From the NCBI GenBank assembly GCA_001873435.1, contig MNZB01000003.1:137789-201788 (forward strand): a stretch of DNA of 64,000 bases. The letters run 5' to 3'. Made by a program: the position numbers and the translations under genes. Position 1 is the first letter of the stretch. Every line of letters begins with the position of its first letter. Source of the DNA: Candidatus Pacebacteria bacterium CG2_30_36_39 (lineage in GTDB: Bacteria; Patescibacteriota; Microgenomatia; UBA1400; PJMF01). The notes under the pieces were generated by a model. The model saw only the letters and a list, made by a program, of their open reading frames with translations, searched no databases and had not been told where the DNA came from. This document shows, piece by piece, positions 19,709 through 52,132 of this stretch.

Positions 19709-19840
19709 TCGTTTTTTAAGTTACTTATTACTATGTTTTCCCGAGAAAAAGTCCCGGAACAACGAACGTTGATTATATCATTTTCTTTGTGATTGTGTAT
19801 TAGAGTTTCATTGGGTATAATTCCCACCATTACTCGGTGA

Positions 19841-19914: not shown

Positions 19915-19927
19915 CCCAGATAAAAAC

Positions 19928-19951
19928 ACTCCCAATTTGGGAGTTTTTTTA
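19928..19951. terminator. Bidirectional intrinsic terminator shared by tRNA-Val and the convergent 1000-aa gene
   Basis: actccca-att-tgggagt perfect hairpin flanked by aaaaa and ttttttt. Confidence 0.7.
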
Positions 19952-22951
19952 TGCCAGTATTTCCTTTGTTTCTTTTAAATTTTCAGTTGAATCAGCCCAT
20001 TTTTTATAAGCTTGGTCTATTATCTCATCCAAAATGGGACCGAACTTCGCAATAATATTCTCTATACTAGCCTCTTCCCTACCCAGCCCAAGAAAAAGCT
20101 TATGGATATAGTCAAAATGGTTTTGACCTTGAGTAACTATTCCCTCAGTGACAAAAATCGACTTAGTTTTTCTCTTATTTTCTGGAGGATTCCAACTTAC
20201 TTTTTTATAATGTTCTAGCACTGCCAAAACTTTCTCTCTTGTTGGAATAAAACCAATGCTAACTAAATATGGATATTTACTCTTAAACTCTTCTAATTTA
20301 CTTTGTTTTTTAGAGTCCTTATTTATTTCTCCAGGATTATCATTAAGATGAACTCTTTTTTCTTTAATAGCTACTAAAAATTCTTCTGCACCTTTTTTTG
20401 CTCCATCTTCCGGATCATGATTATGAATACCTCTGTTTTGAATTATTGATATCTTCCCTTCTTTGCCACTTTCTAGTTCTAGAGTTGAAACCCTTGTCAT
20501 TTTTCCATCCACTATTTTTCTAATAGAAACTATATGGTGAGTTCCTTTGCTGCATTTATCTGAATAACCTCCCTTACCCACACAATGTGACATGGCGCTA
20601 CCCTCATCAACTAATTGTTGAGAGCTTGTGAGTGGAACAAAAAAGTATGTTGTTTTCCCCCATTCAAATCTATATTCTGGGTCGGAGAACAATGGTTTCC
20701 ATTCCCTAGTATCTACGAGATCTTTAATATTTTCTGGAAAATTATGCTGAGGCAAGTGTTCAGTTTGAGCAAACAAAGCCAGCTCACTAAAAGTTAAAGG
20801 TAAACCAAGTTGATTTAATCTCTGGTCATTGTTTAAAAACAAAAAATCCTCAGCAATAGTTTTTGCTAGTTCCAACTGCAGTTTACCAAGATCTTTGTCC
20901 ATGAACACTTCTGTTTTAAGCAATAACAATGGAGCAATAAAACTTCTACTGAATCCTTCTATCGAGTCTTTAATTAGATCAAATTTGTCGATGTCAATTT
21001 TTTCTAATTTTTCCCATAATTTTTCAAAAAAAACCTCATCTGCGTAATCACTTCCAACTTCATTATTCATTTTATTGAAAATGATTGAAAGGTTGTGTTC
21101 AGAAAAATCAATTTTTAGAGCAGAAAGAATTCCAGCAATTTTTTCTAAACAAGCTAGGGCAACCTCAATTTGTTCGGCAGAATAATTATTAAAAAGATCA
21201 TAAACTTCAACCGTTCTGCATAGTAACTCGCTAAAAAATTCATTATTTGAAAATTTTCTAATAGCCTCGACTTCTGCTTCTTTATTATTTTTTCCTTCCA
21301 ATCCTTGCAAAATAATTGTTTCAGAGGTAATCGAAGACCCAGATTTATAATCGAAGACTTTTTTACCAGTCAGAGGGTGTACTTGATTTACAATTTCCTT
21401 CCAATCATCTATTGAGAAGCTAGCTCTAATTTCAGCAAGAGCTTCTTTTTCTGGAAAACCAAACTTATCATAACTAAGTAGTAATAACTGAATTATCCAT
21501 GATGTCAGTGCTATTTCATTCTCTATGTCATCTGGAACTGGAAAATCTTGATTTTTGTATAAATATGTTAAAAAGGGTTTCCAATTTACAAATTTGTAGT
21601 TTTTATTGAGAGTATATCGATATATTTTTTGGATATTTTGCATTCTGCTTTCAGCAAAAGTCCAAACGTCAAGTCTTTCTGGTAAGGTTTTATTATTTTT
21701 TAGAAACCAATTCATTAATTTGTCATGGGTTTTTATTTCAAAAAAACTAAGATTTGATAGCAACCACTCAGTTTTTTTTGAATCTGGTCTATCAATATAG
21801 ATATCTAAAACACTTTGGGGGAATTTTCTTATTGTAGTTAAGTTTAGCTCTTTTATTTCTTCATCATCCCAGGTACTAAAGATTTTTCTTAATATTTGAT
21901 TTTTATTTATTCCTTTGACAATGGCAAATGCTTCAGCAAATTGTTTTCTTCTTTCTGAATTAGGGTTTTTTGATAATAGTTTCCAGATATATTTTCCATT
22001 TATTTCTGGAGGAAAAGCGTGTTGTGCAGAGAAAATAAAGTCCAATCTATCATTTTCAAATAAAAAATCAGCAGTTTCTTTTGTTAAACCATGAAACTTT
22101 GGAATTACGTCTTTTAATACAAACCATGGAAAATCATTATTCTCAACCATTTTTTGGATTAGAAAATTATGATCAAGGGTTGGATATAAATCTAGATTTT
22201 TTAAAATTGCCCAGGCTTTTTCTTTATCAGTCAATAAATTTATTAGATCATTATGAGAGAGATCTGGAAATTTTTCTGGATGTTTTGCCATTAGAAAAGG
22301 ATTTTCCTTAACCATTTCGATCGGAAAATTTGCTGAATCTGTTGCAAACCAATCCCAATAGAGTTCAAAAACATGAGGATAAGAAGACATTACTGAGACT
22401 GCTTCTTCATCGCTAAAATATGGAGGGTTTTTTGGAATTTCCTCTGACTTGGTTTTCTTTACAAATTTGGCAATTACTTCTATATCAACTTGAGAAAAAC
22501 TTTCTTTATATTCAGAATTTACAAATTTATCAAATGTTAAAGGATTTTTTTCTGCTAAAACCAACAAATACCTTTTTGACAAGGCAGTTTTATTGTTTTT
22601 TAAATAGACCTCCAGTAGATCTGCTGTTGCATCGGCTGGACTAGTTTCCCAAGCTCCAGACGGATCAGCTGCTTGATAAATCGTATTATGTTTATCTGAA
22701 ATTTCATAAAGCAGTTCTTCAGAGATGAGCTCTGGTTCTGTGGTGGCAAGTGATTTTGCTCTAACAATAGCACTCTCTTGACCAGAATCTATGGCTGTCA
22801 AAATGTATTGAATTTTTATCTCTGATGGAAAGGCTTTTACTTGCTCATCATAGTCTTTTGGTTTGTCATACCAATTACGGATTAACTCATCGAGTTGATC
22901 CATTTTTCTTTTATGAGAATTATCCAAGGTAGTTGCTATATTTTCTTGCAT
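19949..22951 (-). CDS. 1000-aa orphan protein. Largely alpha-helical N-terminal ~800 aa of unknown function. C-terminal ~150 aa resembles the uncharacterised PcfJ-like family (EG-x2-M-x-HCVG...Y...G..I.S.R...Q.RG..N).
   Basis: Uninterrupted ORF. Motif EGSAMSHCVGKGGYSDKCSKGTHHIVSIRK...IQNRGIHN. Very AT-rich codon usage relative to flanking housekeeping genes. Confidence 0.45.
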   Translation of the reverse strand: MQENIATTLDNSHKRKMDQLDELIRNWYDKPKDYDEQVKAFPSEIKIQYILTAIDSGQESAIVRAKSLATTEPELISEELLYEISDKHNTIYQAADPSGAWETSPADATADLLEVYLKNNKTALSKRYLLVLAEKNPLTFDKFVNSEYKESFSQVDIEVIAKFVKKTKSEEIPKNPPYFSDEEAVSVMSSYPHVFELYWDWFATDSANFPIEMVKENPFLMAKHPEKFPDLSHNDLINLLTDKEKAWAILKNLDLYPTLDHNFLIQKMVENNDFPWFVLKDVIPKFHGLTKETADFLFENDRLDFIFSAQHAFPPEINGKYIWKLLSKNPNSERRKQFAEAFAIVKGINKNQILRKIFSTWDDEEIKELNLTTIRKFPQSVLDIYIDRPDSKKTEWLLSNLSFFEIKTHDKLMNWFLKNNKTLPERLDVWTFAESRMQNIQKIYRYTLNKNYKFVNWKPFLTYLYKNQDFPVPDDIENEIALTSWIIQLLLLSYDKFGFPEKEALAEIRASFSIDDWKEIVNQVHPLTGKKVFDYKSGSSITSETIILQGLEGKNNKEAEVEAIRKFSNNEFFSELLCRTVEVYDLFNNYSAEQIEVALACLEKIAGILSALKIDFSEHNLSIIFNKMNNEVGSDYADEVFFEKLWEKLEKIDIDKFDLIKDSIEGFSRSFIAPLLLLKTEVFMDKDLGKLQLELAKTIAEDFLFLNNDQRLNQLGLPLTFSELALFAQTEHLPQHNFPENIKDLVDTREWKPLFSDPEYRFEWGKTTYFFVPLTSSQQLVDEGSAMSHCVGKGGYSDKCSKGTHHIVSIRKIVDGKMTRVSTLELESGKEGKISIIQNRGIHNHDPEDGAKKGAEEFLVAIKEKRVHLNDNPGEINKDSKKQSKLEEFKSKYPYLVSIGFIPTREKVLAVLEHYKKVSWNPPENKRKTKSIFVTEGIVTQGQNHFDYIHKLFLGLGREEASIENIIAKFGPILDEIIDQAYKKWADSTENLKETKEILA

Positions 22952-30625: not shown

Positions 30626-31324
30626 ATGAGAAAAATTATTTTTGGTAATTGGAAAGCTAATAAATCCTTAACTCAAGCCAGAGAATGGCTTGAGATTTTT
30701 AATCAAGAATTAGCTGAAGATGCTCAGTTAGAAGTTGAAGGAGTAATAGCTCCTGCTTTTCCACTCTTATCTGAAGTAAAAGAAAATTTGCCTAAGCAAA
30801 TTAGTTTGGGTTTGCAAGATATTAGCGCTTATCCAGCTGGTTCATATACTGGTGGTGTTTCGGTGCAAAATATTGCCGGTTTTGGGGTGAAATATGCTTT
30901 AATTGCTCATTCAGAACGTCGCAAATACTTTACTGAAACATCCACCACCGCTGCTCAAAAAGTCACCCAATTACTTTCTATTGGTATTACTCCAATTGTT
31001 TGTGTTGAAAGAGAAACCATTGATGAGCAGATTGCTAGAATTTCTGTGGAAGAATTATCTAAATGTATTATTGCTTATGAGCCTTCTGCCTCAATTGGAT
31101 CTGGAAATAATGCTTCATTAAGTGATGTAACTGATTTTAAAGAAAAGGTTAAAAGACTTTGTGGAGATGTGCCATATCTTTATGGTGGAAGTGTTAATGA
31201 GCAATCAATTGCTGAGTATCTTTTTGTCACTGATGGAGTTATTATTGGCACTGCCTCACTTGAGGCAAAACAATTTGTATCAGTTTTACGAGCTGCCCAA
31301 GGGAAAACACCTATTGGCTCATGA
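30626..31324 (+). CDS. tpiA: Triosephosphate isomerase
   Basis: GNWKAN, IAHSERR, AYEP motifs. Confidence 0.85.
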   Translation: MRKIIFGNWKANKSLTQAREWLEIFNQELAEDAQLEVEGVIAPAFPLLSEVKENLPKQISLGLQDISAYPAGSYTGGVSVQNIAGFGVKYALIAHSERRKYFTETSTTAAQKVTQLLSIGITPIVCVERETIDEQIARISVEELSKCIIAYEPSASIGSGNNASLSDVTDFKEKVKRLCGDVPYLYGGSVNEQSIAEYLFVTDGVIIGTASLEAKQFVSVLRAAQGKTPIGS

Positions 31325-32583
31325 AACGATTATTTGAGATACCTTATAGCTTTTCACTATTAGCGATTCTGTTTTTTTCCTTGTTGGTAAGATTTTTTCA
31401 ACTTGGTCAACCTGCAGATTATGTTTTTGATGAGCGTTATCATCTTCCAGCTGTCAGATTGATTGCTGAAAATGACCCTAGAGCTTTTGAGTGGTGGCAT
31501 CCTCCAATTTATGGTGTTTCAAACCATGATTGGCTTCATCCTCCTTTGGCTAAATATATTCAAGCCACTGTTTATAAATTAGGTCATGGCTCAGTAGAGA
31601 GCTGGCGTTTGGGATCAGTTATTTTTGGTCTAGGGGGAATAGTTTTAACCTATGTATTAGGTAGTTTGGTTTTTAATAACAGATTGGTAGGAATTTTATC
31701 TGCTTTAATTTTGAGTTTAGATGGTTTGTGGCTAGTTCAATCTAGAGTGGGAATGAATGATGTTTTTGTTACTGTTTGGTTGCTACTGGCTGCTATTGTT
31801 TATGTAAAGCTGAAGAAAAAAACCAATAGTTCTTTGTTGCTGTTGGTCGGAATTTTTCTTGGTATTGGGATAGCTACCAAGTGGACAGCCATGTTTTGGT
31901 TGGTGGGAATTCTTAGCTATGAACTAGTTAATGTTTGGAGAAAAAAAACTTGGCGCTTGATTCCTTGGCAAGTTTTTTGTTTATTAGCTGTGCCTATTTT
32001 TATCTACTTATTAAGTTATTTGCCTATGTTTATTCAGGGTAAAGATTTTAGTTATTTTTTAGAATTACATAAAAATATTTGGTGGTATCAGACTCATCGT
32101 GAATCCTTGCATTTGTTTCAATCTATTCCAGCCCAATGGATAAATAATACTGGTGTTGTTTGGTATTGGCACGGCTCTAATTATGAAAATATTTATGCTT
32201 TTAATAATCCATTATTGGTTGTTCTAGAAAACATTGCTTTGTTGGTAACCATTTATGCAATTGCAAGAAAAAATGTTAATCATCAATATTTGTCTTTGCT
32301 ATTGTTTTTTTACGCCATGAGTTTTGTGCTATGGGTTTTTAGTCCACGGATACTTTTTTATTATCACTACACTCCAGCTCTGCCATTTTTGGCAATAATT
32401 TTGGGATATTGGTTGAAGAAAATTTATTTTTCGAATGTTGAAGTTAAAAAATCTTTATTATTCTTATTTACAATTGTTTGCCTGGTTTTTGTTTTCTGGC
32501 TTTATTATCCAGCTTGGATTGGATTTCCAGTTTCCAAAGATTTACAAGACACAGTATACTATTTCCTGCCTGGACAGATATAA
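31321..32583 (+). CDS. GT-C fold glycosyltransferase, PMT/ArnT-like (GT39/GT83-type) polytopic membrane protein
   Basis: N-terminal loop DE motif (VFDERYH), >10 TM helices. Confidence 0.55.
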   Translation: MKRLFEIPYSFSLLAILFFSLLVRFFQLGQPADYVFDERYHLPAVRLIAENDPRAFEWWHPPIYGVSNHDWLHPPLAKYIQATVYKLGHGSVESWRLGSVIFGLGGIVLTYVLGSLVFNNRLVGILSALILSLDGLWLVQSRVGMNDVFVTVWLLLAAIVYVKLKKKTNSSLLLLVGIFLGIGIATKWTAMFWLVGILSYELVNVWRKKTWRLIPWQVFCLLAVPIFIYLLSYLPMFIQGKDFSYFLELHKNIWWYQTHRESLHLFQSIPAQWINNTGVVWYWHGSNYENIYAFNNPLLVVLENIALLVTIYAIARKNVNHQYLSLLLFFYAMSFVLWVFSPRILFYYHYTPALPFLAIILGYWLKKIYFSNVEVKKSLLFLFTIVCLVFVFWLYYPAWIGFPVSKDLQDTVYYFLPGQI

Positions 32584-32584
32584 A

Positions 32585-33301
32585 ATGAAAAAACTATCTT
32601 CTCTATCTATTTTTTTTCCTTGTTTTAATGAAGAAAGAAATATTCCTTTTTTTATTGATGAAGCGCTTAATTTTCTTCCCAAAATTGCTGATAAGTTTGA
32701 GATTATTATCATAAATGATGGGAGTGTGGATGATACAAGATTAGTTACTGACAAACTAACCAAGGAAAATCCACTTATTAAGGTAATTCATCATTCAGAA
32801 AACTTGGGCTATGGTGCTGCTTTGAGAACTGGTTTTTCAGTAGCCAAATATGAGTGGGTGTTTTTTACCGATGGTGATTTGCAATTTAAATTGTCTCAAC
32901 TTAAAAAATTTATTCCTTATACTGATAAAAACCACGTGATAATTGGTTATCGCAAAAACAGAGCGGATGGCAAAGCTAGGGTTTTTAATGCTTGGTTATT
33001 TAAGCTTTATATTGATTTGCTTTTTAGAGTTGGGGTTAAAGATATTGACTGTGCATTTAAGTTATTTCATAGGAAAACTTTGCAATCTTTGCATTTAGAA
33101 TCTACTGGAGCTTTTACTAGCTCTGAGGTTCTTTATAAGTTAAAGAAAAAAGGTGAAGTTTTTGTTCAGCTGCCAGTTGATCATAAAAAAAGAAAATATG
33201 GTTCTCCAACTGGAAATAATTTGAAGGTAATTATTAAAGCTGGAATTGAGGCTTTGAGTTTATATTTAAAAATTAAGCTTGGAAGTTTAGTTCAAAAATG
33301 A
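32585..33301 (+). CDS. GT2 family glycosyltransferase, polyprenol-phosphate sugar synthase (DPM1/GtrB-like)
   Basis: LSIFFPCFNEE...IIIINDGSVDDT...DGDLQF (GT-A DxD). Start at 32585 preferred over the overlapping track start. Confidence 0.7.
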   Translation: MKKLSSLSIFFPCFNEERNIPFFIDEALNFLPKIADKFEIIIINDGSVDDTRLVTDKLTKENPLIKVIHHSENLGYGAALRTGFSVAKYEWVFFTDGDLQFKLSQLKKFIPYTDKNHVIIGYRKNRADGKARVFNAWLFKLYIDLLFRVGVKDIDCAFKLFHRKTLQSLHLESTGAFTSSEVLYKLKKKGEVFVQLPVDHKKRKYGSPTGNNLKVIIKAGIEALSLYLKIKLGSLVQK

Positions 33302-34557
33302 AAAAAATAGCAATTATCGGAGCTGGTTTTGCAGGTTTGGCTGCAGCATGGGAAGCTGTTAAATCAGGTTACAAAGTTGATATTTTTGAAGCTGAAAAAC
33401 TACCAGGTGGATTGGCTTCTGGATTAAAAAATGATAAATGGTTGTGGTCTTTGGAGCATCATTATCATCATATTTTTCAAACAGATAAAGATATTCTCAA
33501 TTTATTGTCAGAAATGAATTTGAATAAAAAAATATTTTTTAAGACAGTAAACACTAGATCATATTTTGATAAAAGAGCTTGGTCAGTTGATAGTCCCATT
33601 AATTTGCTTCGCTTCTCTCCCCTATCATTTTTTGATCGTTTACGAGTTGGTTTTGTTATTGCGTTTTTAAAATTTTTACCCAATGGTCGTTGGTTAGAAA
33701 AATACTCTGCTAAAGATTTTTTAATTAAGACTATGGGGAAAGCTGGTTGGGAAATTTTATGGCAACCCTTATTTGATGGCAAATTTGGCAAGCAAGCTGG
33801 AAAGATAAACATGGCTTGGTTTTGGGCTAGAATCAGTTCTCGCTCACAGCAATTGGGATATTATCAGGGTGGATTTTTATGTTTAGCAGAAGATATGGTT
33901 GAAGTTTTAAAATCAAAAGGTGTTAAGTTTCATTTTTCTGCTCCAGTATTAAAAATAAAAAGCAGTAACAAAAAAATAAATGTAATTTTGGAAAAAAATA
34001 AAAGTCTTCCTTTTGATAATGTTTTAATAACCCTTCCATCTCCAGTGGCTAGCAAGTTGGTTGATTTACCAAAGAATAATTTAAAAGGATTATCAGCAAG
34101 AACTTTAGTATTAGAGTTAGATAAAGAATTTTTTATTGATCAGACATATTGGCTGAGTATTCATGAGAAAAACTGGCCTTTTTTGGCTGTGGTTGAGCAT
34201 ACCAATCTTACTAACAAAAAAAATTATGGTAACAAAACTATTATTTATGTTGGTAAGTATTTAGATAAAAAAGAATCTTTTTATAAACTTAGTAAAGAAG
34301 AGATTCTTAAAATATATCAGCCATTTTTAGAAAAACTTTCTCCTGGATTTAATAAATATCTAAAGCGTAGCTGGATTTTTGATGCAGACTTTGCCCAACC
34401 ATTGGTTTTTACCAACCATTCTAAAGAGGTGCCATTAATTAAAACTGATATGAATGGAGTTTATTGGGTCAGCATGCAACATGTTTACCCTTGGGATCGT
34501 GGCATAAATTATGCGGTTAAATTTGGTTTAGAAGCTGTTAAATATTTTAATGATTAA
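33298..34557 (+). CDS. FAD/NAD(P)-binding oxidoreductase (amine-oxidase/CrtI/HemY-like family)
   Basis: N-terminal Rossmann GxGxxG (IAIIGAGFAGLAAA), EAE..PGG motif. ~420 aa. Confidence 0.55.
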   Translation: MKKIAIIGAGFAGLAAAWEAVKSGYKVDIFEAEKLPGGLASGLKNDKWLWSLEHHYHHIFQTDKDILNLLSEMNLNKKIFFKTVNTRSYFDKRAWSVDSPINLLRFSPLSFFDRLRVGFVIAFLKFLPNGRWLEKYSAKDFLIKTMGKAGWEILWQPLFDGKFGKQAGKINMAWFWARISSRSQQLGYYQGGFLCLAEDMVEVLKSKGVKFHFSAPVLKIKSSNKKINVILEKNKSLPFDNVLITLPSPVASKLVDLPKNNLKGLSARTLVLELDKEFFIDQTYWLSIHEKNWPFLAVVEHTNLTNKKNYGNKTIIYVGKYLDKKESFYKLSKEEILKIYQPFLEKLSPGFNKYLKRSWIFDADFAQPLVFTNHSKEVPLIKTDMNGVYWVSMQHVYPWDRGINYAVKFGLEAVKYFND

Positions 34558-36247
34558 ATATATGAAAAAAATATTTCAAAATTTGATTAATTTTTTTCAG
34601 CAAAAAAGCTCTAAAAAATATTTTGTAATTTTTGGAATTTTTTTTCTAATATGTTTTATTTTTTTTCAATCAACATTTTCTTATCATGAACAAAAATTTT
34701 TTATTAAAGCAAAATTGTGGAGCGATTTTGCTGCCCACCTTCCACTCATTAGGTCTTTTAGTCTTGGAGATAATTGGCCAGTGGAATATCCTTTTTTTGC
34801 TGGACTTAAGATTAACTATCATTTTCTGTTTTATGCAGTCGTTGGTGGTTTGGAAAGAATTGGTTTTAGAATTGATTACGCACTAAATTTTCTAAGTGCT
34901 TTGGGTGGCGCTGGTTTATTGACTAGTATTGTTTGGCTTGGTGAGTACTATTTTAGTTTTAGCGCTGGTTTATTGGCAGTTTTTTTATTTTTATTTAATG
35001 GTTCGTTAGTTTTTATTCAATTTTTTAAAGAAAATATTTTTACTAATTTTGAAAATTTTTATCAAACTTTAGTTACTCAAAGAACATTTGTTAGTTTTGG
35101 TCCTTGGAATGGAGATTTAATAAGTGCATTTTGGAATTTAAATATTTTTACCAATCAACGTCATTTGGGCTTGGGTATTAGTATTTTATTGTTTTTAATT
35201 GGTTGGTTTGAATTATTTTTTAAAGAGAAAAATAAGATTTATCAGAGAGATTATTTATTAATAGCTTTTTTAATAGTTTTACTGCCCCTATTTCATCAGG
35301 CCTCTTTTGCTGTTTTAGTAATTTATTTATTAATTGGTTTTTTCTCTAATCCAAAATTTTATTTAAAAAAACATTTATTATTTTTTATTATTACGGGATT
35401 TATTTCTTTTAAATCATATTTAATGTTTAAAAATGGTTTTATACCTATTTTAGACATTGGTTTTTTGGCTTTAGAAAAAAACTTACCAAGTATTTTTAAT
35501 TATTGTTTACAAAACTTTGGACTTTACCTATTTTTTATTCCGCTATTTTTATTTTTAGTATTTTTCAAAAAAGATTATTTTAAATTTCGTAAGATTTATT
35601 TAACTGGTTTATTTATTTTTATTATTTCTTTTATTTTTCGTTTTTCTACAGACATGATTAATAATCATAAATTTATTACTATTTTTCTGATTATTATGAA
35701 TTTAGGCGTTGCTGGCTTATTAGTTAAAACTTATCAAACACAAGTTTTTTTGAAGCAAATTGGTGTTTCTTTAATAGTCTTTTTCTTAACCTTTTCTGGC
35801 TTAATAGACTTATTTCCAATTCTCAATGATGGCTTGTATGTGCAAAAAGATTATCAGCGATCTGAGTTTGGTAGATGGGTAGTCACAATTGATCCACATT
35901 CGGTTTTTTTGGTAAATGAATATTTATATAATCCAATTTCTTTAGCTGGTAGAAAACTCTATCTAGATTATGGTTATTTTTCTTGGTCAATGGGTTATCC
36001 AGATCATGATCGTCGAAAAAAACAGGACCAGATTTTTAGTAAAGATATTGCTAAAGATGACTGGTGCAACCTACTAAGCTCTGAGGGTATTGATTATTTG
36101 GCATTAGACCAAAATCAAGGTGATTTTATGAGTAAGTACAGAGTTGATCAGTCTAGTTTTATTTATTTTTCTAAACCATTGATTTTTGATAAAGCAGAAA
36201 ATCAATCGAGCACATATGTTTATGATGTAAAGGAAATATGTCAATAA
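34550..36247 (+). CDS. Polytopic Phe-rich membrane protein (possible GT-C glycosyltransferase), function unknown
   Basis: ~14 predicted TM helices with a soluble C-terminal domain. Embedded in the glycosyltransferase cluster. Confidence 0.35.
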   Translation: MIKYMKKIFQNLINFFQQKSSKKYFVIFGIFFLICFIFFQSTFSYHEQKFFIKAKLWSDFAAHLPLIRSFSLGDNWPVEYPFFAGLKINYHFLFYAVVGGLERIGFRIDYALNFLSALGGAGLLTSIVWLGEYYFSFSAGLLAVFLFLFNGSLVFIQFFKENIFTNFENFYQTLVTQRTFVSFGPWNGDLISAFWNLNIFTNQRHLGLGISILLFLIGWFELFFKEKNKIYQRDYLLIAFLIVLLPLFHQASFAVLVIYLLIGFFSNPKFYLKKHLLFFIITGFISFKSYLMFKNGFIPILDIGFLALEKNLPSIFNYCLQNFGLYLFFIPLFLFLVFFKKDYFKFRKIYLTGLFIFIISFIFRFSTDMINNHKFITIFLIIMNLGVAGLLVKTYQTQVFLKQIGVSLIVFFLTFSGLIDLFPILNDGLYVQKDYQRSEFGRWVVTIDPHSVFLVNEYLYNPISLAGRKLYLDYGYFSWSMGYPDHDRRKKQDQIFSKDIAKDDWCNLLSSEGIDYLALDQNQGDFMSKYRVDQSSFIYFSKPLIFDKAENQSSTYVYDVKEICQ

Positions 36248-37938
36248 AAAAACCAATCAGAGTTGGTTTTGATTTGGATGGAGTTTTACTTTACAACCCA
36301 GTGAGAATTGTTCGTCCTATTATTTCTTTATTAAAAAAGAAAAAAATTATTCAGCGCAAGGAAATGCAATTTTTTGTTCCCACTAGGAAATGGGAAATGA
36401 TTTTTTGGCGGCTATTTCATAAGACAAGTCTGTTTGTTTCTCCTGGAATTAAGGAAATTGAGAGGCTTGTTAAAGCTGGTGAAATTGAGGCCTATGTTGT
36501 AACTGCTAGATTTAAGTATCTTCAGCCAGATACTCAGTATTGGTTTAATAAGTTTGCCAAAAAGAAGATTTTTAAAACCTGTTATTTGAATGAAAAAAAT
36601 GAGCAACCGCACTTATTTAAAGCAAGGAAAATTGATGAATTAAAGTTAGATTATTTTGTTGAAGACAATTGGGATATTGTTCAGTTTTTAAATAAAAAAT
36701 TTGGTCAAAAGAAAAAGATTTTTTGGATTACCAATTTAGTTGATAATAAAAAGAATTATGAATATAAATTTTTGAGTTTGCAAAAAATATTTAAATCATT
36801 GCCAAATTACAAACCAAAGCTTTTATTTTTTTCACCATACTTCTACCCGCATAAGTCTGGTATTACTCAGTATTCACTAAAGATGCTTTCGGAAATTGCT
36901 AATAAATATAGTATTACTGTATTAAGCTTTAAATTTTCAGCAAGATTAAAAAACTTTGAGTATTTCAACGGTTTAAAAATTATTAGAATGCCATTTTTAT
37001 TTTATTTTAAAAAAGGATTTATTTCTTTTCAATCAATTATTTATTTTTTTAAAAATTTAATTAACACAGATTTGGTTGTCGTTGACTATCCTAATCTAGA
37101 AGGTTTGCCATTAATTATTTTTGCCAAACTAATGAGAAAAAAAATAGTTACAGCTTTTCATTGTAAAATTCAATTTGAAACTGGATTAATTAATTATTTG
37201 ATAAAAAAATTATTGGAATTTTCAGCCTTAGTTCATTTGGATCTTAGTGATAAAGTTGCCGTATTAGCAGATGACTATTTTTATCAATTCTCAAGCTATC
37301 AAAAATATTCACCAAAGATAAAAGAAATTCATCCACATTTTGGATCAGAAAAAAAAGATCAATTATTTTTCAAGAAAATTAAGCAGCAGAAGAAAAAAAA
37401 TATTTGGCTTGGATTTGTTGGAAGAATAGCTTCTGAAAAAGGCATAGAAACACTTTTAAAAGCTTTGCAAAAATTACCAGCAAACCATCAATTAATTATT
37501 GCTGGTCCATCTTTAGTTACTGGAGAAAATGAATATCGAAAGAAAGTTCTAAAAATTGTTGAGAACCAATCGGCTAGGATTATTTTTTTTAATGACTTAA
37601 ATAATAATAAATTAGTTAGTTTATTTTCATTATTAGATGTTTTAATTCTTCCTTCAGAAAAACATACTGAGGCTTTCGGAATTGTACAACTTGAAGCAAT
37701 GGAACAAGGTATTCCAGTTGTGGCTTCAAATCTTCCTGGTATTAGAGTTCCAGTGTTAAAAACTGGTTTGGGAATGTTATTTAAACCAAAAGATGAATTT
37801 AGTTTATACAAAGCAATTAAGCAAACTTTGGATAAACGACAACTCAAGGATAAGACAAAAAATATTAAAAAATTTAATCAGATATTTTCTAGCAAAGAAA
37901 CAGTTAATCAGTTTTTAGATTTATTGCGAAAAATATAA
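36238..37938 (+). CDS. Fusion protein: N-terminal HAD-like phosphatase domain + C-terminal GT4 (GT-B) glycosyltransferase
   Basis: HAD motif I FDLDGVL near the N-terminus. GT4 E-x7-E region (EAFGIVQLEAMEQGIPVVAS) in the C-terminal half. Confidence 0.6.
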   Translation: MSIKKPIRVGFDLDGVLLYNPVRIVRPIISLLKKKKIIQRKEMQFFVPTRKWEMIFWRLFHKTSLFVSPGIKEIERLVKAGEIEAYVVTARFKYLQPDTQYWFNKFAKKKIFKTCYLNEKNEQPHLFKARKIDELKLDYFVEDNWDIVQFLNKKFGQKKKIFWITNLVDNKKNYEYKFLSLQKIFKSLPNYKPKLLFFSPYFYPHKSGITQYSLKMLSEIANKYSITVLSFKFSARLKNFEYFNGLKIIRMPFLFYFKKGFISFQSIIYFFKNLINTDLVVVDYPNLEGLPLIIFAKLMRKKIVTAFHCKIQFETGLINYLIKKLLEFSALVHLDLSDKVAVLADDYFYQFSSYQKYSPKIKEIHPHFGSEKKDQLFFKKIKQQKKKNIWLGFVGRIASEKGIETLLKALQKLPANHQLIIAGPSLVTGENEYRKKVLKIVENQSARIIFFNDLNNNKLVSLFSLLDVLILPSEKHTEAFGIVQLEAMEQGIPVVASNLPGIRVPVLKTGLGMLFKPKDEFSLYKAIKQTLDKRQLKDKTKNIKKFNQIFSSKETVNQFLDLLRKI

Positions 37939-39611
37939 ACCGTAGGGTGATCATAGACAGTAAATGCTTCCTCTGCCCATTGATCATCAATCGTGACTGG
38001 AATACCTAGCCATTCTAATGATGGACTAGTCTGAAAAACTTTTTCCATTTGATAGTTAGTTTCGCCACCAAACAAGTTTTGATAAAAAATGCTTGTTTGA
38101 GGATATCTATTTGGAATTCTAGAAATACTGGCCCAAGCTCTATTTGAGGACAGAATATAATAATCTGCATTTGCTAGTTCATAATTAATAGTTTCCCATT
38201 TTTGAGTTGAGTCTTGGTCAAATACTGAAATTGCTTTGGCTTGATAATTATTGATTTTTCCAGGGACATAAGCCAATGGCAAAGAATCATCCCAGTACTC
38301 ATAGAGAATCATTGAGTTGTTGGGAACATTTTGATAAATCCATCTAGTGGCTTCTGCCCTAGTAAATGGTTTGACAAAAATATTTGTAAACATCAAAGGC
38401 CAAAACATAATTATGATGATGAGTACGATGGCAGTGGTAAAAGGCTTCTTATTGCCAATAGTTTGTTGGATTCTAGCTGCTCCTAGTCCACCAAAAAAGG
38501 CAAAGAATGGGTAAAGCATGGCGAAGTAGCGTAGGTTTTGTGTGAATTGTGATCCCTGCCAACAAATAAATAGTATTATCCAGATTGAAAGTATTGATAA
38601 AAATGTTTTTGGTCTTTTAATAGTTAGCCAAAGCCAACCAATTAAAATTAACAAGCTTTGCCAAATGCCTATGCCAAAAAAGACCATGTTTTTTAGACTG
38701 AATAGAATTGGGGTTCTATCTAGCCATTGCATGGATGGTGGAAACCAAGTATCTGGTTTTGACCATGATTGGAGTGTTTGTAAGTTTTTTATAAAGGCTG
38801 GAGAAATTTGAGGATCTAGCCATGAATTATTGAAAAAATAATCTGGATTTAAAATTCTTAGGGTTACGTAACTAACTAAGCCAAAAAATAGTCCATTTCT
38901 TAATAACAACCAGATTGATTGCCATAGTTTTTTTTTATTTAAAACTGTTTGCCAAATAAAAACTGCAGCAAGTAAGGGTGCGTAATAAATGGCTGATGAT
39001 TTGCTGGCTAGTGCCATGCCCCAAAAAATTCCAGCTAGTTGAATAAAAAATATTTCAATAAAGATGTTATTTGATTTTTTAATAGCTGCAAAAATGCTTA
39101 ACAAACTAGCTAAGCAAAAAAAAGTAACAAAAGGATCAACTGTAAAGAAGTGAGAGAGTTGAATAGGTAGAACCATTAAGGCATAGATGAGAGTTGCCCA
39201 GAGAGAGGTTTTTTTTGGTAAATTAAATTTTTGAGTAAAATAGCGAGCCAACAAAAAGACAAGAACAATGGTGCCTGTTTCCAAGATAATATTTATTGTT
39301 CTGCCAAGCAAAACAAATGGTAAAAAGGCATCCTTTGTGTGAGTGAGTTGGGCGATCACTTTAATAACAGTTAATGGAAAACTGCCATAGACATAAAATT
39401 GATAGGAAGTATTTTTAACTCTCAGGGGTGAGTCTGAAGAGAAATATTCGTTTAGATTTTTGGGAATTTTTAGTTCTTGAGCAACCATGACCAAAAATCT
39501 TTCATCTGGATGCATGAAAGTGCCTTGATCCCAGTAAATTCCTAAAACTCTTATAAAAAAGCCTAGTAAGACCAAGGTGACTAGAGAAAGAAATGCTTTC
39601 ACGTATTTCAT
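37908..39611 (-). CDS. GT-C fold glycosyltransferase (ArnT/PMT-like, COG1807-type)
   Basis: HPDERF DE-motif in the first periplasmic loop, ~12 TM helices. 567 aa. Confidence 0.6.
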   Translation of the reverse strand: MKYVKAFLSLVTLVLLGFFIRVLGIYWDQGTFMHPDERFLVMVAQELKIPKNLNEYFSSDSPLRVKNTSYQFYVYGSFPLTVIKVIAQLTHTKDAFLPFVLLGRTINIILETGTIVLVFLLARYFTQKFNLPKKTSLWATLIYALMVLPIQLSHFFTVDPFVTFFCLASLLSIFAAIKKSNNIFIEIFFIQLAGIFWGMALASKSSAIYYAPLLAAVFIWQTVLNKKKLWQSIWLLLRNGLFFGLVSYVTLRILNPDYFFNNSWLDPQISPAFIKNLQTLQSWSKPDTWFPPSMQWLDRTPILFSLKNMVFFGIGIWQSLLILIGWLWLTIKRPKTFLSILSIWIILFICWQGSQFTQNLRYFAMLYPFFAFFGGLGAARIQQTIGNKKPFTTAIVLIIIIMFWPLMFTNIFVKPFTRAEATRWIYQNVPNNSMILYEYWDDSLPLAYVPGKINNYQAKAISVFDQDSTQKWETINYELANADYYILSSNRAWASISRIPNRYPQTSIFYQNLFGGETNYQMEKVFQTSPSLEWLGIPVTIDDQWAEEAFTVYDHPTVYIFRNKSKN

Positions 39612-39688
39612 TATAACGGAGTCTTTTTTTCCTAGTTACTGGGTTTTCAATCTCTCTTTTTACCTGATATTTTGGTATATTCGAGCGT

Positions 39689-41788
39689 ATGTTTTTAAAT
39701 GGTATTTACTTATTATTTTTAGCCACTTCTACATTACTTTTTCAAATTCTTGGTTTTGCTTTGCTAAATTTATTTTTGCCTAAAAAAAGAATGACAGCTG
39801 AAGTATGGGCTTGGGGGAGAATTGTCGGTTGGTTAGTTATTGGTTTGTTTATGTGGTTTTTGGGTCATTTGTTACCTTTTAATACTGATTTGGGTTTTTG
39901 GTTGATTTTTATATTTACGTATTTTGTTGTATTTATTAAAAATAAAGAGTTGAAGAGTGAATTAAAACAATTTGTTGCAAAGTTTAAAAAAGAAATAATT
40001 TTATTTGAACTAATATTTTTATTTGGTTTTATATTTCTTGGTTTGATGAGAACTTATAATCCTCAGGTTTTAGATTTAGAAAAATTTATGGATGGTGGTT
40101 TAATGCAGCGCTATTTAGTTTCCCCTACCCTTCCTATTCAGGATATGTGGCTGGCTGGTGAAAAAATTAATTATTATACTTTTGGTCATTTTTTAGGAAG
40201 CTTGATGCTGCGGTTTTGGAAGTTGCCAATGGAATGGGGCTACAATATTTTATTAGCTTATATTCTTGGCTTGATGTGTATAGAGTCTTTTGCTTTTGGC
40301 AGAATTTTATTAAAGCCTTTCATTGCTCAGGCTCCAAAAAAACATCTCAAAAGAAATGCTTTTTTACTAACTTTTATTGGTTTACTTTCAATGCTTTTGG
40401 TAAATTTTGCTGGCAATACCCACCCACTTTGGTATCTTATTAAGAATGGGAGTTTTGACAAATATTGGTATCCAGACGCAACTAGATTCATTGAAAGAAC
40501 TATCCACGAATTTCCAGCTTATAGTTATATAGTTAGCGATTTGCATGCTCATGTTTGGGCAATGCCAATCGTTATTTTGATGCTGTTTATTGCTTGGGAA
40601 TGGAAATTGAGTTTGGCTGAAGAAAAGAAATATCTTTCATTTCGTTCGAAACTTGGCGATTTTAAATCTTTAAAAATTGGTAGTTTATTAAATCAGTCAT
40701 ATTTTCGTGAATCTTTGGCTATGGGTGCTATTTTGGGAATTTTAGCAATGACTAGTACCTGGGATACCATGATCTATGGTTTGTTTTTAGCTGTACTTGG
40801 TGTGTTTTTGCTGTTGGAATTTACTGAAAAATTTTGGTTATTTGTTTTTTCTGCTATAGCAGTTGGTTTGGCAGCTATTGTTAGTGTTAGTTTATGGATG
40901 TTAAATTTTACCTCCATTTCTCAGGGAGTATTTTTGGCTTATGAGCATTCACCATTTTGGCAATTAATTGCTTTATGGGGAGGACATTTTTTATTTAGTT
41001 TATTGAGTTTAATATTTGTAGCAATGATTAAGTTTTCCCCAAAATTAAAACCTAGTTATATATTTTTATTGAGTATGGGTATTACAGCTTTTATTTTATT
41101 AGTTTTACCAGAATTGATTTATTTTAAAGATATATACCCCAATCATCCTAGGGCTAACACGATGTTTAAGTTTACTTTTCAAGCTTTTATTTTGATGAGT
41201 TTCTTAATCAGTTGGGGTTTTGGTATGTTGCTGCAAAAATCTACTAAATCTTTAATTTCTTTATTATTAAAAATCTTAGTTTTAATTTTTGTAGGAGGTT
41301 TTTTTCTTGTTGCTTTGTGTTTTCCTTTTTTGGGTTATCCGAGTTACTATGGTCACTTTAAAACTAATGATGGTTGGGATGGCTTGAGTTGGATGAAACG
41401 TGAAACTCCAGCCGATTATCAAGCTATTTTATGGTTAAGAAAAAATGTAGATCCTAATGCAATTATTTTGGAGGCTGTAGGAGAGAGTTATAGTAAAAAA
41501 GCTAGAGTATCTGTTTTTACTGGTATGCCTACAGTGCTTGGTTGGAGGGTTCATGAATGGTTATGGAGAGGTGGATTTGCAATACCTGGTCAAAGAACTA
41601 CTGAGGTAGCCAAAATTTTTGAACAGCCAAATTCTGTGGAGGCTTCAAATCTATTAAATCAATATAAAGTGAAATATATTTTTGTAGGTTCTCAAGAAAA
41701 AATAGTTTATAAATTAAATCATGATTTGTTAGTTGATTTGGGTAAAGTGATTTATTCTAAGGATGGAGTTTATATTATTGAAAGATAA
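39689..41788 (+). CDS. DUF2298 / Chlor_Arch_YYY family polytopic membrane protein (putative GT-C glycosyltransferase)
   Basis: MWLAGEKINYYTFGHFLG matches the family-defining YYY motif region. ~16 TM helices and a C-terminal soluble domain. Confidence 0.5.
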   Translation: MFLNGIYLLFLATSTLLFQILGFALLNLFLPKKRMTAEVWAWGRIVGWLVIGLFMWFLGHLLPFNTDLGFWLIFIFTYFVVFIKNKELKSELKQFVAKFKKEIILFELIFLFGFIFLGLMRTYNPQVLDLEKFMDGGLMQRYLVSPTLPIQDMWLAGEKINYYTFGHFLGSLMLRFWKLPMEWGYNILLAYILGLMCIESFAFGRILLKPFIAQAPKKHLKRNAFLLTFIGLLSMLLVNFAGNTHPLWYLIKNGSFDKYWYPDATRFIERTIHEFPAYSYIVSDLHAHVWAMPIVILMLFIAWEWKLSLAEEKKYLSFRSKLGDFKSLKIGSLLNQSYFRESLAMGAILGILAMTSTWDTMIYGLFLAVLGVFLLLEFTEKFWLFVFSAIAVGLAAIVSVSLWMLNFTSISQGVFLAYEHSPFWQLIALWGGHFLFSLLSLIFVAMIKFSPKLKPSYIFLLSMGITAFILLVLPELIYFKDIYPNHPRANTMFKFTFQAFILMSFLISWGFGMLLQKSTKSLISLLLKILVLIFVGGFFLVALCFPFLGYPSYYGHFKTNDGWDGLSWMKRETPADYQAILWLRKNVDPNAIILEAVGESYSKKARVSVFTGMPTVLGWRVHEWLWRGGFAIPGQRTTEVAKIFEQPNSVEASNLLNQYKVKYIFVGSQEKIVYKLNHDLLVDLGKVIYSKDGVYIIER

Positions 41789-41790
41789 TT

Positions 41791-42579
41791 ATGTTGATTG
41801 TTTTTACACTCATTCCAGTTTTAGCAATTTTGGCAGCATTATTTGTTTATAGGCACAATGGTAAAAAAGAGATTTTACGTTTTGATATGGTGCAGTTTTT
41901 TTATGCTTTTATCTTGATGCCCACTGTTTATGTGTGGTTTAAAGGTTTTTTATATTTATTATTAAAAACTGAATTAAATCAAAAAATTTCTCAACAAGAA
42001 TTGTTTTTTTACGATACTGCTTATTCTATTTTTTTCCTTTTTATCTTTGCTTTTGCTGTTATTCATTCTTTAACAAAAAGCTTTGAGCTAAAAATAAAAA
42101 AAGATCCTCTTTATGATTTGTTTGAGCATTCTGAGTACTATCATCTTTGGTTGTCTCACACCATTTTTTTTGTTGGTTCAATGATTCTATCTACTTCATT
42201 GGCTATTTTTAATATTTGGTTTGATTTGCCAATTGTATTTCCTAAAGCTATTTTCTATTTTATTCTTCTAACTACTCCATTTGTTGCTATGGCTGTTTTT
42301 AAAGTATTTAAAATTTCAGATTTTGGTGATTTTCGTTTTTTAAAATTAATGAAACTTTTTAATGGATTATTCTTTTTAATTCATGGAGTTTTGTTTATTG
42401 TTTTTGAGCCTGTTTTTATGAGTGAAAAACTTATGTATTGGTATTTGACTAATGTTTTTGGCTTCCTATCTTTGATCTCTATTTTTCATTCTCCAGAGCC
42501 AAAGCCAGATTCTTTGCGTAAGAGAATAGCTTATAAGGCTAAGGTTGTAGTTGGAAAATTAATTCATTCTAAAAAATAA
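41791..42579 (+). CDS. Polytopic membrane protein, unknown function
   Basis: ORF with 6-7 hydrophobic helices, 3-nt gap to the upstream gene. Confidence 0.4.
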   Translation: MLIVFTLIPVLAILAALFVYRHNGKKEILRFDMVQFFYAFILMPTVYVWFKGFLYLLLKTELNQKISQQELFFYDTAYSIFFLFIFAFAVIHSLTKSFELKIKKDPLYDLFEHSEYYHLWLSHTIFFVGSMILSTSLAIFNIWFDLPIVFPKAIFYFILLTTPFVAMAVFKVFKISDFGDFRFLKLMKLFNGLFFLIHGVLFIVFEPVFMSEKLMYWYLTNVFGFLSLISIFHSPEPKPDSLRKRIAYKAKVVVGKLIHSKK

Positions 42580-42620
42580 AAAAAAGAGGGCAACCAATGG
42601 TTACCCTCTTTACATATTTT
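42570..42620. terminator. Bidirectional intrinsic terminator between convergent genes
   Basis: aagagggcaacc-aat-ggttaccctctt hairpin flanked by A-tract and T-rich tail. Confidence 0.55.
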
Positions 42621-49593: not shown

Positions 49594-49611
49594 TTTTCAG
49601 GGAATAAAAAG

Positions 49612-49685
49612 TGGGTGTACTACGAATCGAACGTAGGACCTCTGTCTTATCAGGACAGCGCTCTAACCATCTGAGCTATACACCC
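49612..49685 (-). tRNA. tRNA-Ile (anticodon GAU). CCA not encoded.
   Basis: rc gives GGGTGTATAGCTCAGATGGTTAGAGCGCTGTCCTGATAAGACAG...GGTTCGATTCGTAGTACACCCA. Anticodon loop CTGATAA. Confidence 0.8.
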
Positions 49686-50038
49686 AAAATAATAACCAGT
49701 ATTGTAACATGCTCGGATATTTTTGCTATCTGAAATTTTCTTTTTTCTATTGTAAAACCTTGAGGTTGTTTTAGAAATAAACTTTGTATTGTTGTTAGAT
49801 TTTTTTATTAAAAATTATTAAAAAATTTTCAATAAAAAACTATCCTCTTTCCTATGAAAAATATAACCCTATCTATCAAATAATATCAAAGTATATCATA
49901 TAAAAAATAATGATATATCAATATATATTTTATAAACTAGCAATTAGCAGAGTTTGCCATTGTCTGCTAATGACCTATATTGTATTGACTATTTTAGTGA
50001 TGAATCAGGATATTATTTAATAATAGAGTAATTAAATA

Positions 50039-50070
50039 CAAAAAAACCCTCAGTACTGAGGGTTGGTTTT
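50039..50070. terminator. Strong intrinsic terminator within the 16S to tRNA-Ile spacer
   Basis: Perfect 16-nt palindrome ccctcagtactgaggg. On the minus (rRNA) strand it is followed by TTTTTTTG. Confidence 0.6.
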
Positions 50071-50245
50071 GTCATCTGCTCTTTTTAAGGGCAGTGAGAC
50101 AGATGTTAACATCAGAATAAATTCTGAGCTAAACACGGTGGTGAAAAATGGCCTAGATATGGTGATCATAGGACTTGTTATTTCGAGAACATTACTGTTC
50201 TCGGGAGAAAGGAGGTCGTGATATCTCCTACCCGTTCTCCTTAGA

Positions 50246-51770
<1,525 letters not shown>

Positions 51771-52132
51771 TAAAAATTTATTTTTAAGTTTGAAACTGAT
51801 CTTTTTTTCTTCGTTATCTAAAAGATTTATTGTTTCTGGTTGATAATTTACCCCTGCTGGGATAAATCATCGATTTGGAATTAACGGATTCTTTTTTTAA
51901 AAAAAATCCATCAATGTAACATATTTCACCACCATGTTCATATCAGAATATGAATCCATGGTGTAAATTCTGTCTTAAGTCTATTAATTTGTTAATGTTC
52001 AACTTCTTTTTCACCGAAAAAAAGAAACAATCCCCGCTGGGGGCCGTCTCTTCTTTCCCGCGATTTGTGAATTCTATGTCATGTGACACGAATTGTGAAG
52101 TGGGAGATATTGTATCAAGTAATCATGAGATG

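Follow-up and report, generated by a model that had tools for sequence, protein, structure and literature searches.

A Microgenomates-type gene cluster with a probable role in extracytoplasmic glycosylation from lipid-linked sugar donors in Candidatus Pacebacteria

Eight tightly packed genes (positions 31321-42579) in a 64,000-nucleotide stretch of the Candidatus Pacebacteria bacterium CG2_30_36_39 genome (GenBank GCA_001873435.1, contig MNZB01000003.1, positions 137,789 to 201,788; hereafter the window) probably form a vertically inherited, Microgenomates-type locus for extracytoplasmic glycosylation using polyprenyl-phosphate-linked sugar donors, a reading to which we give a probability of roughly 0.7. 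Glycosyltransferases of the GT-C fold use polyprenyl-(di)phosphate-linked donors at the extracytoplasmic face, GT2 enzymes of the Dpm1/GtrB/ArnC type make polyprenyl-phosphate sugars, and protein O-mannosyltransferases (PMTs) O-mannosylate serine and threonine; a locus of this type is not surprising in principle. Patescibacteria, or candidate phyla radiation (CPR) bacteria, to which this uncultured, ultrasmall organism belongs, are thought to live attached to host cells, and their surface chemistry is almost unknown. An earlier, sequence-only reading of the window had proposed a Dpm1-like GT2 that supplies lipid-linked sugar to outward-facing GT-C enzymes. Families, motifs and topology support this general logic, and all of the gene-family calls made in that reading hold by hidden Markov models (HMMs), motifs and structure models, the HAD domain by motifs and a model only.

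Gene content and layout

The eight genes comprise seven of plus and one of minus orientation; the sequence-only reading had counted nine (eight plus, one minus), while its own list held eight items. In order, the cluster encodes a 420-aa, MIR-less, PMT-like GT-C (GT39-like; 31321-32583, +), a soluble 238-aa GT2 of the Dpm1/GtrB/ArnC type (32585-33301, +), a cytoplasmic 419-aa flavin adenine dinucleotide (FAD) flavoenzyme of the PPOX/amine-oxidase/CrtI superfamily (33298-34557, +), a 565-aa polytopic protein termed open reading frame 5 (ORF5; 34550-36247, +), a 566-aa fusion of an N-terminal HAD phosphatase-like domain of ~195 aa (36238-36822, +) with a GT4 (GT-B) nucleotide-sugar glycosyltransferase domain (36823-37938, +), a 567-aa PMT_2/ArnT-like GT-C (37908-39611, −), a 699-aa DUF2298/Chlor_Arch_YYY polytopic protein with ~13 transmembrane (TM) segments (39689-41788, +) and a 262-aa membrane protein with six TM segments (41791-42579, +). 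The claimed tight packing is confirmed and is operon-like: neighbouring plus-strand genes overlap by up to 10 nt or stand at most 2 nt apart. The PMT and GT2 genes are separated by 1 nt (GT2 start at 32585, as annotated in assembly L001), and overlaps of 4, 8 and 10 nt follow at the GT2/flavoenzyme, flavoenzyme/ORF5 and ORF5/HAD-GT4 junctions, respectively. The HAD-GT4 and minus-strand GT-C genes are convergent and overlap by 31 nt, a divergent 77-nt intergenic spacer (39612-39688) separates the latter from the DUF2298 gene, and a 2-nt gap precedes the 262-aa gene. The spacer is presumed to be a bidirectional promoter region, a role that we infer, since matches in a promoter scan were no more frequent than in shuffled sequence. 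A terminator scan and the sequence locate a 13-bp GC-rich hairpin between A and T runs at 42583-42611, which is likely a bidirectional terminator marking the 3′ end of the cluster.

Relatives of the cluster were taken to be contigs encoding ORF5 homologues. Scanning the GTDB species representatives yielded 80 loci, and 82 non-redundant loci (L numbers below) were annotated by BLASTP against the window proteins; many are truncated, and gene counts are therefore minima.

Four GT-C-type proteins and a small membrane protein

The first gene product matches both PMT modules above the Pfam gathering scores (PF02366, 72.2 bits, cut-off 22.7; PF16192, PMT_4TMC, 43.7 bits, cut-off 32.4) and has at least nine TM segments by hydropathy. 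Its motifs D37-E38, R142-x4-D147 and R343-x2-F346 are invariant in 16 orthologues. In the Mycobacterium tuberculosis PMT, the essential residues are the DE motif in external loop 1, a second aspartate in loop 2 (Rx4-6D) and Rx2[Y/F] in loop 5 (PMC12331936). The window motifs fit these catalytic patterns, with equivalence judged by motif pattern and order and without structural superposition. A PDB sequence search with this protein gave no match.

ORF5 has no Pfam, NCBIfam or PDB sequence match, and its more than 1,000 homologues in a protein search are nearly all unnamed, a few of them carrying precomputed PF10060 matches. An AlphaFold model built from 39 homologues (predicted local distance difference test (pLDDT) 90.6, predicted template-modelling score (pTM) 0.91) retrieves the GT66 oligosaccharyltransferases AglB, STT3 and PglB, the C-mannosyltransferase DPY19, AftA and ArnT in Foldseek (E values from 2e-7 to 1e-3), and includes an AglB-like C-terminal extracytoplasmic domain of ~146 aa. 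The residues S58-D59-F60, H63 and R68 are invariant in orthologues; S58-D59-F60, in loop 1, is so in all 39 homologues, and its acidic residue is the putative catalytic one. As modelled, with a polytopic core and a long first extracytoplasmic loop, ORF5 is a GT-C-fold protein outside the described GT-C sequence families.

The 699-aa protein is a full member of DUF2298 (PF10060, 245.8 bits, cut-off 27.8) and of TIGR03662 (382.2 bits, cut-off 300.25), whereas ORF5 is only a remote paralogue without a direct HMM match. Profile-profile alignment of the ORF5 and DUF2298 families with hhalign gave 96.7% over 455 columns (E = 4e-10); alignment of the ORF5 family with a single DUF2298 sequence was weak (21.6%). 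Invariant positions in the DUF2298 protein are L130-E131-K132, M134-D135 and the YYY motif N161-Y162-Y163, and the protein has a long 65-aa loop after TM4 and a C-terminal domain of ~156 aa. A PDB sequence search with it found no match. Together, ORF5 and DUF2298 constitute a superfamily for which no characterised member was found. The TIGRFAMs description of TIGR03662 gives its function as unknown and the PMT-like family TIGR03663 as a frequent neighbour; the minus-strand PMT_2-like protein of the window has no TIGR03663 match at E ≤ 0.01.

This minus-strand protein matches PF13231 at 28.0 bits (cut-off 26.1) and PF02366 at 27.5 bits (cut-off 22.7; E = 3e-6), and has no PDB sequence match. 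TM1 is followed by a 74-aa first loop in which H34-P35-D36-E37-R38 is invariant in 28 orthologues, and the protein ends in an extracytoplasmic domain of ~154 aa. A relationship of its family to the DUF2298 family was considered and rejected (3.6% in profile comparison). The arrangement of TM1 followed by a first loop of 74-97 aa recurs in three of the four GT-Cs, the DUF2298 protein being the exception, and soluble C-terminal domains of ~150 aa are found in the ORF5, PMT_2-like and DUF2298 proteins. Given the GT-C-like model of ORF5 and the homology between ORF5 and DUF2298, the cluster therefore holds four GT-C-type proteins (PMT, ORF5, PMT_2-like and DUF2298), which bears out the earlier estimate of at least three.

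The 262-aa protein has no Pfam or NCBIfam match and its family is very small, with 69 clusters at 50% identity in a set of 1.84 billion representatives. Its gene lies immediately 3′ of the DUF2298 gene in L003, L008, L010, L013 and L028, and the protein may be a flippase or an accessory subunit.

Cytoplasmic enzymes

The GT2, the flavoenzyme and the HAD-GT4 protein have no TM segment. The GT2 matches PF00535 (98.5 bits), and its closest solved relatives, ArnC (E = 3e-14), GtrB sll0501 (4e-11) and DPMS (6e-6), are all polyprenyl-phosphate glycosyltransferases; NCBIfam matches to PgfS, ArnC, AglJ, PpgS and a Dol-P-hexose transferase all fall below the equivalog cut-offs. Hydropathy of its 238 aa gives no TM-like segment, so the C-terminal anchor of GtrB and ArnC is absent. 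This short, soluble, DPM1/PpgS-like form argues against GtrB/ArnC orthology, not against the activity class, and by its matches the GT2 is assigned to the polyprenyl-phosphate sugar synthases, but to no named equivalog.

The flavoenzyme matches NF005560/PRK07233 (382 bits, cut-off 252), a family titled “hypothetical protein”, and PF01593 (Amino_oxidase, 78 bits). A profile of its family compared with the PDB retrieves only PPOX, LAAO/amino-acid oxidase, MAO, CrtD and an uncharacterised Pyrococcus protein. The flavoenzyme gene is immediately 5′ of an ORF5 homologue in 58 of the 66 loci that have it.

Single-sequence and profile searches of Pfam and the PDB gave no match for the HAD domain, which represents a divergent subfamily. 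The HAD motifs I-IV (D12-x-D14-G-V, T89/R91, K128 and E142-D143-N144) are invariant in sets of 32 and 34 homologues, and an AlphaFold 2 model (pLDDT 88.5) finds the capped sugar-phosphate phosphatases and mutases YniC, HDHD1A and beta-PGM in Foldseek (E values from 3e-6 to 1e-4). These motifs and the modelled fold, Rossmannoid with a cap, confirm the assignment to the HAD superfamily. The GT4 domain matches PF00534 (103 bits) and PF13692 (73 bits), with an Agl16-type match over residues 196-545. In most relatives, HAD is a free-standing protein of ~195 aa; HAD-GT4 fusions also occur in four of the 82 loci (L003, L010, L022 and L050), and the fusion is real, since it is identical in the independent assemblies L001 and L002.

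Base composition and conservation

The cluster is the lowest-GC 11-kb stretch of the window, with a guanine-plus-cytosine (GC) content of 0.301 compared with 0.363 in the other window genes. The difference is.374 versus.482 at first,.300 versus.348 at second and.229 versus.258 at third codon positions, and.177 versus.237 at four-fold sites (P = 0.005 for the latter, Mann-Whitney). Runs of A or T of at least 5 nt are about twice as dense as in the other window genes (21.4 versus 11.2 per kb), as the sequence-only reading had seen relative to flanking genes. Its description of the block as very low-GC captures a real dip that is not uniform with the rest of the window, but overstates a difference of only six points. 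The dip is greatest at first codon positions and therefore mainly reflects amino-acid composition (proteins rich in F, I, L, K and N, mostly membrane proteins), with a smaller synonymous-site component. The orthologous clusters of L003 and L005 show it too, which makes it a feature of the genes themselves rather than a trace of recent import; the GC-richer Omnitrophota relative described below does not show it. Low GC is here a matter of protein composition plus a small synonymous shift common to orthologous clusters, with no sign of foreign origin.

Homologues of the window proteins come almost only from metagenome-assembled genomes (MAGs) of Patescibacteria/CPR, and lineages with informative names belong to the Microgenomates group (Pace-, Woese-, Levy-, Shapiro-, Ames-, Davies- and Gottesmanbacteria). 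We note that many GTDB-representative MAGs with the locus are titled “uncultured Pseudomonadales/Gammaproteobacteria bacterium” (TPA_asm), probably as placeholder or wrong taxonomy labels. The identical locus is present in independent ENA and JGI assemblies, from different metagenomes. The 5′ neighbour of the cluster is tpiA, encoding triose-phosphate isomerase (30626-31324, +; PF00121, 181 bits), which overlaps the PMT gene by 4 nt (ATGA), with the same overlap in L003 and L005, and is probably co-transcribed with it. In L003 (ORF5 56% identical), the same genes occur in the same order between tpiA and SIMPL, flanked by UvrD, FemAB, an amino-acid-kinase-family (UMP-kinase-like) gene and GAPDH on the 5′ side and by PEGA/SH3 and Lon on the 3′ side. 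L005 (ORF5 40% identical) keeps this flanking frame. Its locus (11786-18382) has a gene similar to epimerases/dehydratases of the short-chain dehydrogenase/reductase (SDR) family in place of GT4, directly after a stand-alone HAD gene. In place of the one minus-strand GT-C, it has three tandem membrane proteins (543-561 aa, no Pfam match), of which BLASTP shows one to be PMT_2-like; evolution in the variable part of the locus is therefore modular.

Across the 82 loci, DUF2298 (67 loci) and the flavoenzyme (66) are the most frequent partners of ORF5, together with the flanking genes UvrD (52), FemAB (47) and tpiA (42). HAD occurs in 34 loci (beside ORF5 in 21), the PMT_2-like gene in 30, GT4 in 24, GT2 in 23, PMT in 17 and the 262-aa gene in 5. 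The flavoenzyme-ORF5-DUF2298 core lies beside tpiA/UvrD/FemAB in most loci (Levy-, Woese-, Shapiro-, Ames-, Davies- and Gottesmanbacteria). Two layers make up the locus, an ancient, Microgenomates-wide core of flavoenzyme, ORF5 and DUF2298, often with HAD, and an extension of PMT, GT2, GT4, PMT_2-like and 262-aa genes in the clade of this genome.

The block had been suspected to be a laterally acquired, possibly mobile island with a strain- or lineage-specific surface-glycan pathway. Its low GC, including the four-fold sites, would fit such an origin, as would a gene content that varies among relatives, with GT4, SDR and extra GT-C genes gained or lost. Comparison among relatives instead finds the cluster neither patchy nor variable in position: the frame from tpiA/UvrD/FemAB to SIMPL/Lon is kept, and position and neighbours are unchanged in relatives down to ~35-40% protein identity (35-60% range). 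The identity of cluster proteins to their window counterparts correlates with that of UvrD and FemAB in the flanks (Spearman rho 0.46-0.73). The cluster has neither integrase or transposase genes nor adjacent tRNAs, and a boundary repeat search gave only AT-rich low-complexity matches. Vertical inheritance is supported by this synteny and co-divergence, the common GC dip, the absent mobility marks and the translational coupling to tpiA, and the recovery of the identical locus from different metagenomes also speaks against an island. The evidence contradicts lateral mobility, leaving an island highly improbable, and argues for an old, vertically inherited locus with modular gain and loss. The accompanying claim of lineage specificity stands only in the broad sense of a Microgenomates-wide locus, since relatives also occur in Omnitrophota.

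The Omnitrophota cluster (L007/L019; OY759724.1, a 3.36-Mb chromosome, 4860-20253) encodes the same GT-C families as the window, including an ORF5 homologue, a DUF2298 protein and three more polytopic GT-C-like proteins, along with two GT2s, a GDSL lipase-like protein, a PRK07208-like flavoenzyme that differs from the window flavoenzyme but shares its superfamily, an SDR and a UbiA-family protein that matches the decaprenyl-phosphate phosphoribosyltransferase equivalog (241 bits, cut-off 234). It strengthens the link of these GT-Cs to lipid-linked donors and hints at decaprenyl-phosphate-arabinose (DPA)-like chemistry in that lineage. As an observation in its own right, it resembles a donor pathway of DPA or pentofuranose type that would supply GT-Cs of the DUF2298 superfamily in a lineage other than Actinobacteria and Proteobacteria. 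Orthology of the window flavoenzyme with the flavoenzyme of this cluster was rejected, as similarity is confined to the FAD-binding N-terminus.

Proposed pathway and alternatives

In the pathway that we favour, the soluble GT2 would load sugar from a nucleotide sugar onto polyprenyl phosphate at the cytoplasmic face, where the flavoenzyme, the HAD domain and the GT4 domain may act on the donor, a donor precursor or a primer. ArnD and DprE1/DprE2 tailor lipid-linked donors before flipping. The analogy with these enzymes, and with the phosphoribose phosphatase of HAD type in pentofuranose systems, suggests that flavoenzyme and HAD domain may modify the donor, a donor precursor or the lipid that carries it. 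The lipid-linked sugar would then be flipped, for which the 262-aa, six-TM protein is the only candidate in the cluster, and the four GT-Cs would transfer the sugar to acceptors on the outer face. To judge from its motifs, the GT39-like PMT most likely targets serine and threonine of secreted or surface proteins, and ORF5, the DUF2298 protein and the PMT_2-like enzyme may serve further acceptors, for example, a growing protein-linked glycan, a wall polymer or a lipoglycan. That proteins are the main acceptor class falls a little short of even odds. Tailoring of the sugar by the flavoenzyme and tailoring of the lipid chain are equally improbable.

Several points weigh against this pathway. The cluster has no recognisable GtrA, MATE or SMR flippase. 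The PMT scores 50.4 bits against the NCBIfam bacterial Pmt equivalog NF058602 (cut-off 800), in the N-terminal part only; the PMT_2 assignment is barely above the gathering scores; and the DUF2298 protein is a putative GT-C by profile homology to the modelled ORF5 family. The nearest relatives of the flavoenzyme act on tetrapyrroles, amines and isoprenoid chains and not on sugars, so its target might be the polyprenyl chain or lie outside glycosylation altogether. In an incomplete library, a literature search found nothing on the function of the DUF2298, ORF5, NF005560 and 262-aa families, and nothing relevant on GT-C or PMT proteins in CPR or Microgenomates glycosylation, this cluster included.

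As in the actinobacterial pair of Ppm1 and Pmt (GT39), a GT2 polyprenyl-phosphate sugar synthase stands beside a MIR-less PMT (PMT plus PMT_4TMC) with DE, Rx4D and Rx2[Y/F] motif patterns. Unlike that pair, the window PMT is shorter (420 aa, where the profile for the Pmt equivalog of M. tuberculosis type has 530 positions), the GT2 belongs to no named synthase equivalog, three further GT-Cs, a flavoenzyme and a HAD-GT4 fusion are present, and the host is a CPR bacterium. The multiplicity of GT-Cs is shared with mycobacterial lipomannan, lipoarabinomannan and arabinogalactan assembly, and the locus might build a cell-wall-linked or lipid-anchored glycopolymer (arabinogalactan-, lipomannan- or teichoic-acid-like) rather than glycosylate proteins. 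GT4 would then make a cytoplasmic primer and the four GT-Cs would be successive extracytoplasmic polymerising or branching enzymes, as with Emb, Aft and Mpt of Corynebacteriales. However, the first gene encodes a PMT with both Pfam modules and the motif patterns of protein O-mannosyltransferases, ORF5 is matched best in Foldseek by GT-Cs that modify proteins (AglB, STT3, PglB and DPY19) and has an AglB-like C-terminal domain, and the cluster has no polymer export or ligation genes of the LCP, ABC or Wzx type. We regard such a polymer pathway, and with it a wall- or lipid-linked polymer as the main acceptor class, as somewhat unlikely. A second possibility builds on pentofuranose systems, for which Kelly et al. 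2024 report a HAD phosphoribose-phosphatase, a UbiA-type synthase, a GT-C and an optional cytoplasmic SDR epimerase (PMC11127046), a precedent for the concept of lipid-linked donor tailoring. In a “three-component” or DPA-like core of this kind, HAD would dephosphorylate a lipid-linked sugar phosphate, the flavoenzyme would oxidise and epimerise it, with an SDR in some relatives, and DUF2298-superfamily GT-Cs would transfer the sugar. The UbiA, flavoenzyme and SDR of the Omnitrophota cluster, next to the same GT-C families, are consistent with this scheme, as are the HAD-SDR succession in L005 and the 21 loci with HAD beside ORF5. Against it, no UbiA-type polyprenyl-phosphate phosphoribosyltransferase is found among ORFs of at least 150 aa in the window, Pfam and NCBIfam searches find no MATE/SMR flippase and no DprE1/DprE2- or SDR-type epimerase in the cluster (SDR genes occur only in L005 and L007), and the donor synthase here is a GT2 predicted to use nucleotide sugars. 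The flavoenzyme has a fold unrelated to that of DprE1 and barely resembles the Omnitrophota flavoenzyme beyond the FAD-binding motif. Since these window ORFs include no UbiA/decaprenylphosphoryl phosphoribose (DPPR) synthase, the direct pentofuranose/DPA reading is rejected for this genome, and we hold a DPA-like core to be improbable.

The favoured pathway, with a GT2-made donor, shares a cytoplasmic polyprenyl-phosphate-sugar synthase, flipping and an outside GT-C with the GtrABC, ArnC-ArnT and pentofuranose systems (Kelly et al. 2024; PPPRS-PRP, MATE flippase, GT136), as well as, in predicted roles, accessory cytoplasmic enzymes that tailor the donor and a HAD-family phosphatase in donor synthesis. 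In contrast to these systems, the window has no GtrA, MATE or SMR flippase and no UbiA-type synthase, encodes four GT-Cs instead of one, and has its HAD domain fused to GT4 and not, as in the pentofuranose systems, to the synthase. We know of no system of the GtrABC, ArnC-ArnT or pentofuranose type with a PPOX/CrtI-superfamily flavoenzyme as the tailoring enzyme. The window also differs from the mycobacterial DPA pathway (UbiA Rv3806c, a phosphatase, the FAD oxidase DprE1 and the reductase DprE2) with its Emb/Aft arabinosyltransferases of the GT-C type: it has neither UbiA nor a DprE2-like reductase, sequence similarity to the Emb and Aft enzymes is not detectable, and its flavoenzyme belongs to a different fold family from DprE1, a vanillyl-alcohol-oxidase-type flavoprotein. 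The flavoenzyme might instead be a polyprenyl-chain reductase or desaturase (RetSat/CrtI/HpnE type) that tailors the lipid carrier, for example, to a dolichol-like lipid, for GT-Cs resembling oligosaccharyltransferases or PMTs. The substrates of its nearest families (PPOX, CrtI/CrtD and HpnE) are lipophilic and mostly isoprenoid, its coupling to GT-C genes extends to loci without a nearby GT2, and the GT-Cs resemble eukaryotic and archaeal enzymes with dolichyl carriers. This explanation would leave the conserved HAD partner unaccounted for, and the known polyprenol reductases, to our knowledge, belong to other families; we consider it, too, improbable.

Other features of the window

The rest of the window is ordinary core genome, with genes for RNase III, type IV pilus assembly, RecG, aminoacyl-tRNA synthetases, a class-A penicillin-binding protein, IF3, trigger factor, GAPDH, FemAB, UvrD, tpiA, Lon, MnmA and UvrA/UvrC. 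A 417-aa polytopic Wzy_C/O-antigen-ligase protein (13877-15130, −; PF04932, E = 1e-10) has a GC content of 0.31, as low as that of the cluster, adjoins the class-A penicillin-binding protein (11130-13871, +) and could be a second, independent surface-glycan ligase or O-oligosaccharyltransferase. The type IV pilus assembly genes (PilM and PilO-like) lie at 4448-6852 (−). A 1,000-aa protein with a PcfJ-like domain only (19949-22951, −; PF14284), at a GC content of 0.32, below the window average, adjoins tRNA-Val. After a bacterial 16S rRNA gene (50245-51773, −) come tRNA-Ile (49611-49685), the two together spanning 49611-51773 (−), and an MFS transporter gene of opposite orientation; there is no 23S rRNA gene beside the 16S gene in the window, and the rRNA genes therefore appear unlinked. 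Three adjacent genes at 53254-56448 (−) and 58670-60547 (−) encode a MATCAP-like peptidase, a “sugar-transfer associated” ATP-grasp protein (PF14397) and a 7TM_transglut protein (PF14402); with a transglutaminase-core protein nearby, they form an uncharacterised conserved module.

Significance

The over-reading of a GC dip as horizontal transfer is now corrected. Although their genomes are extremely reduced, many members of the Microgenomates, a major CPR lineage, retain a conserved multi-GT-C cluster for envelope glycosylation. On the model and profile homology above, the GT-C fold can be assigned to DUF2298/Chlor_Arch_YYY and to a paralogous family of more than 1,000 homologues that had no annotation, and the NF005560/PRK07233 flavoenzyme is tightly and specifically coupled to these GT-Cs, a coupling without characterised precedent that may point to a new way to tailor lipid-linked sugar donors. 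A bolder proposal, which we put forward tentatively and think unlikely, is that the flavoenzyme-(HAD)-ORF5-DUF2298 core is an undescribed GT-C pathway, widespread in Microgenomates, in which the flavoenzyme remodels a polyprenyl-phosphate-linked donor, in its sugar or its lipid, and the DUF2298 superfamily carries out the transfer. If true, the flavoenzyme would play the part of DprE1/DprE2 or ArnD without being homologous to them, the DUF2298 superfamily would be a new GT-C family whose nearest structural relatives include the STT3/AglB/PglB oligosaccharyltransferases, and CPR bacteria would have their own lineage-typical surface-glycosylation chemistry. The cluster offers concrete candidates, in its enzymes, catalytic residues and operon partners, for the first biochemistry of CPR surface glycans.

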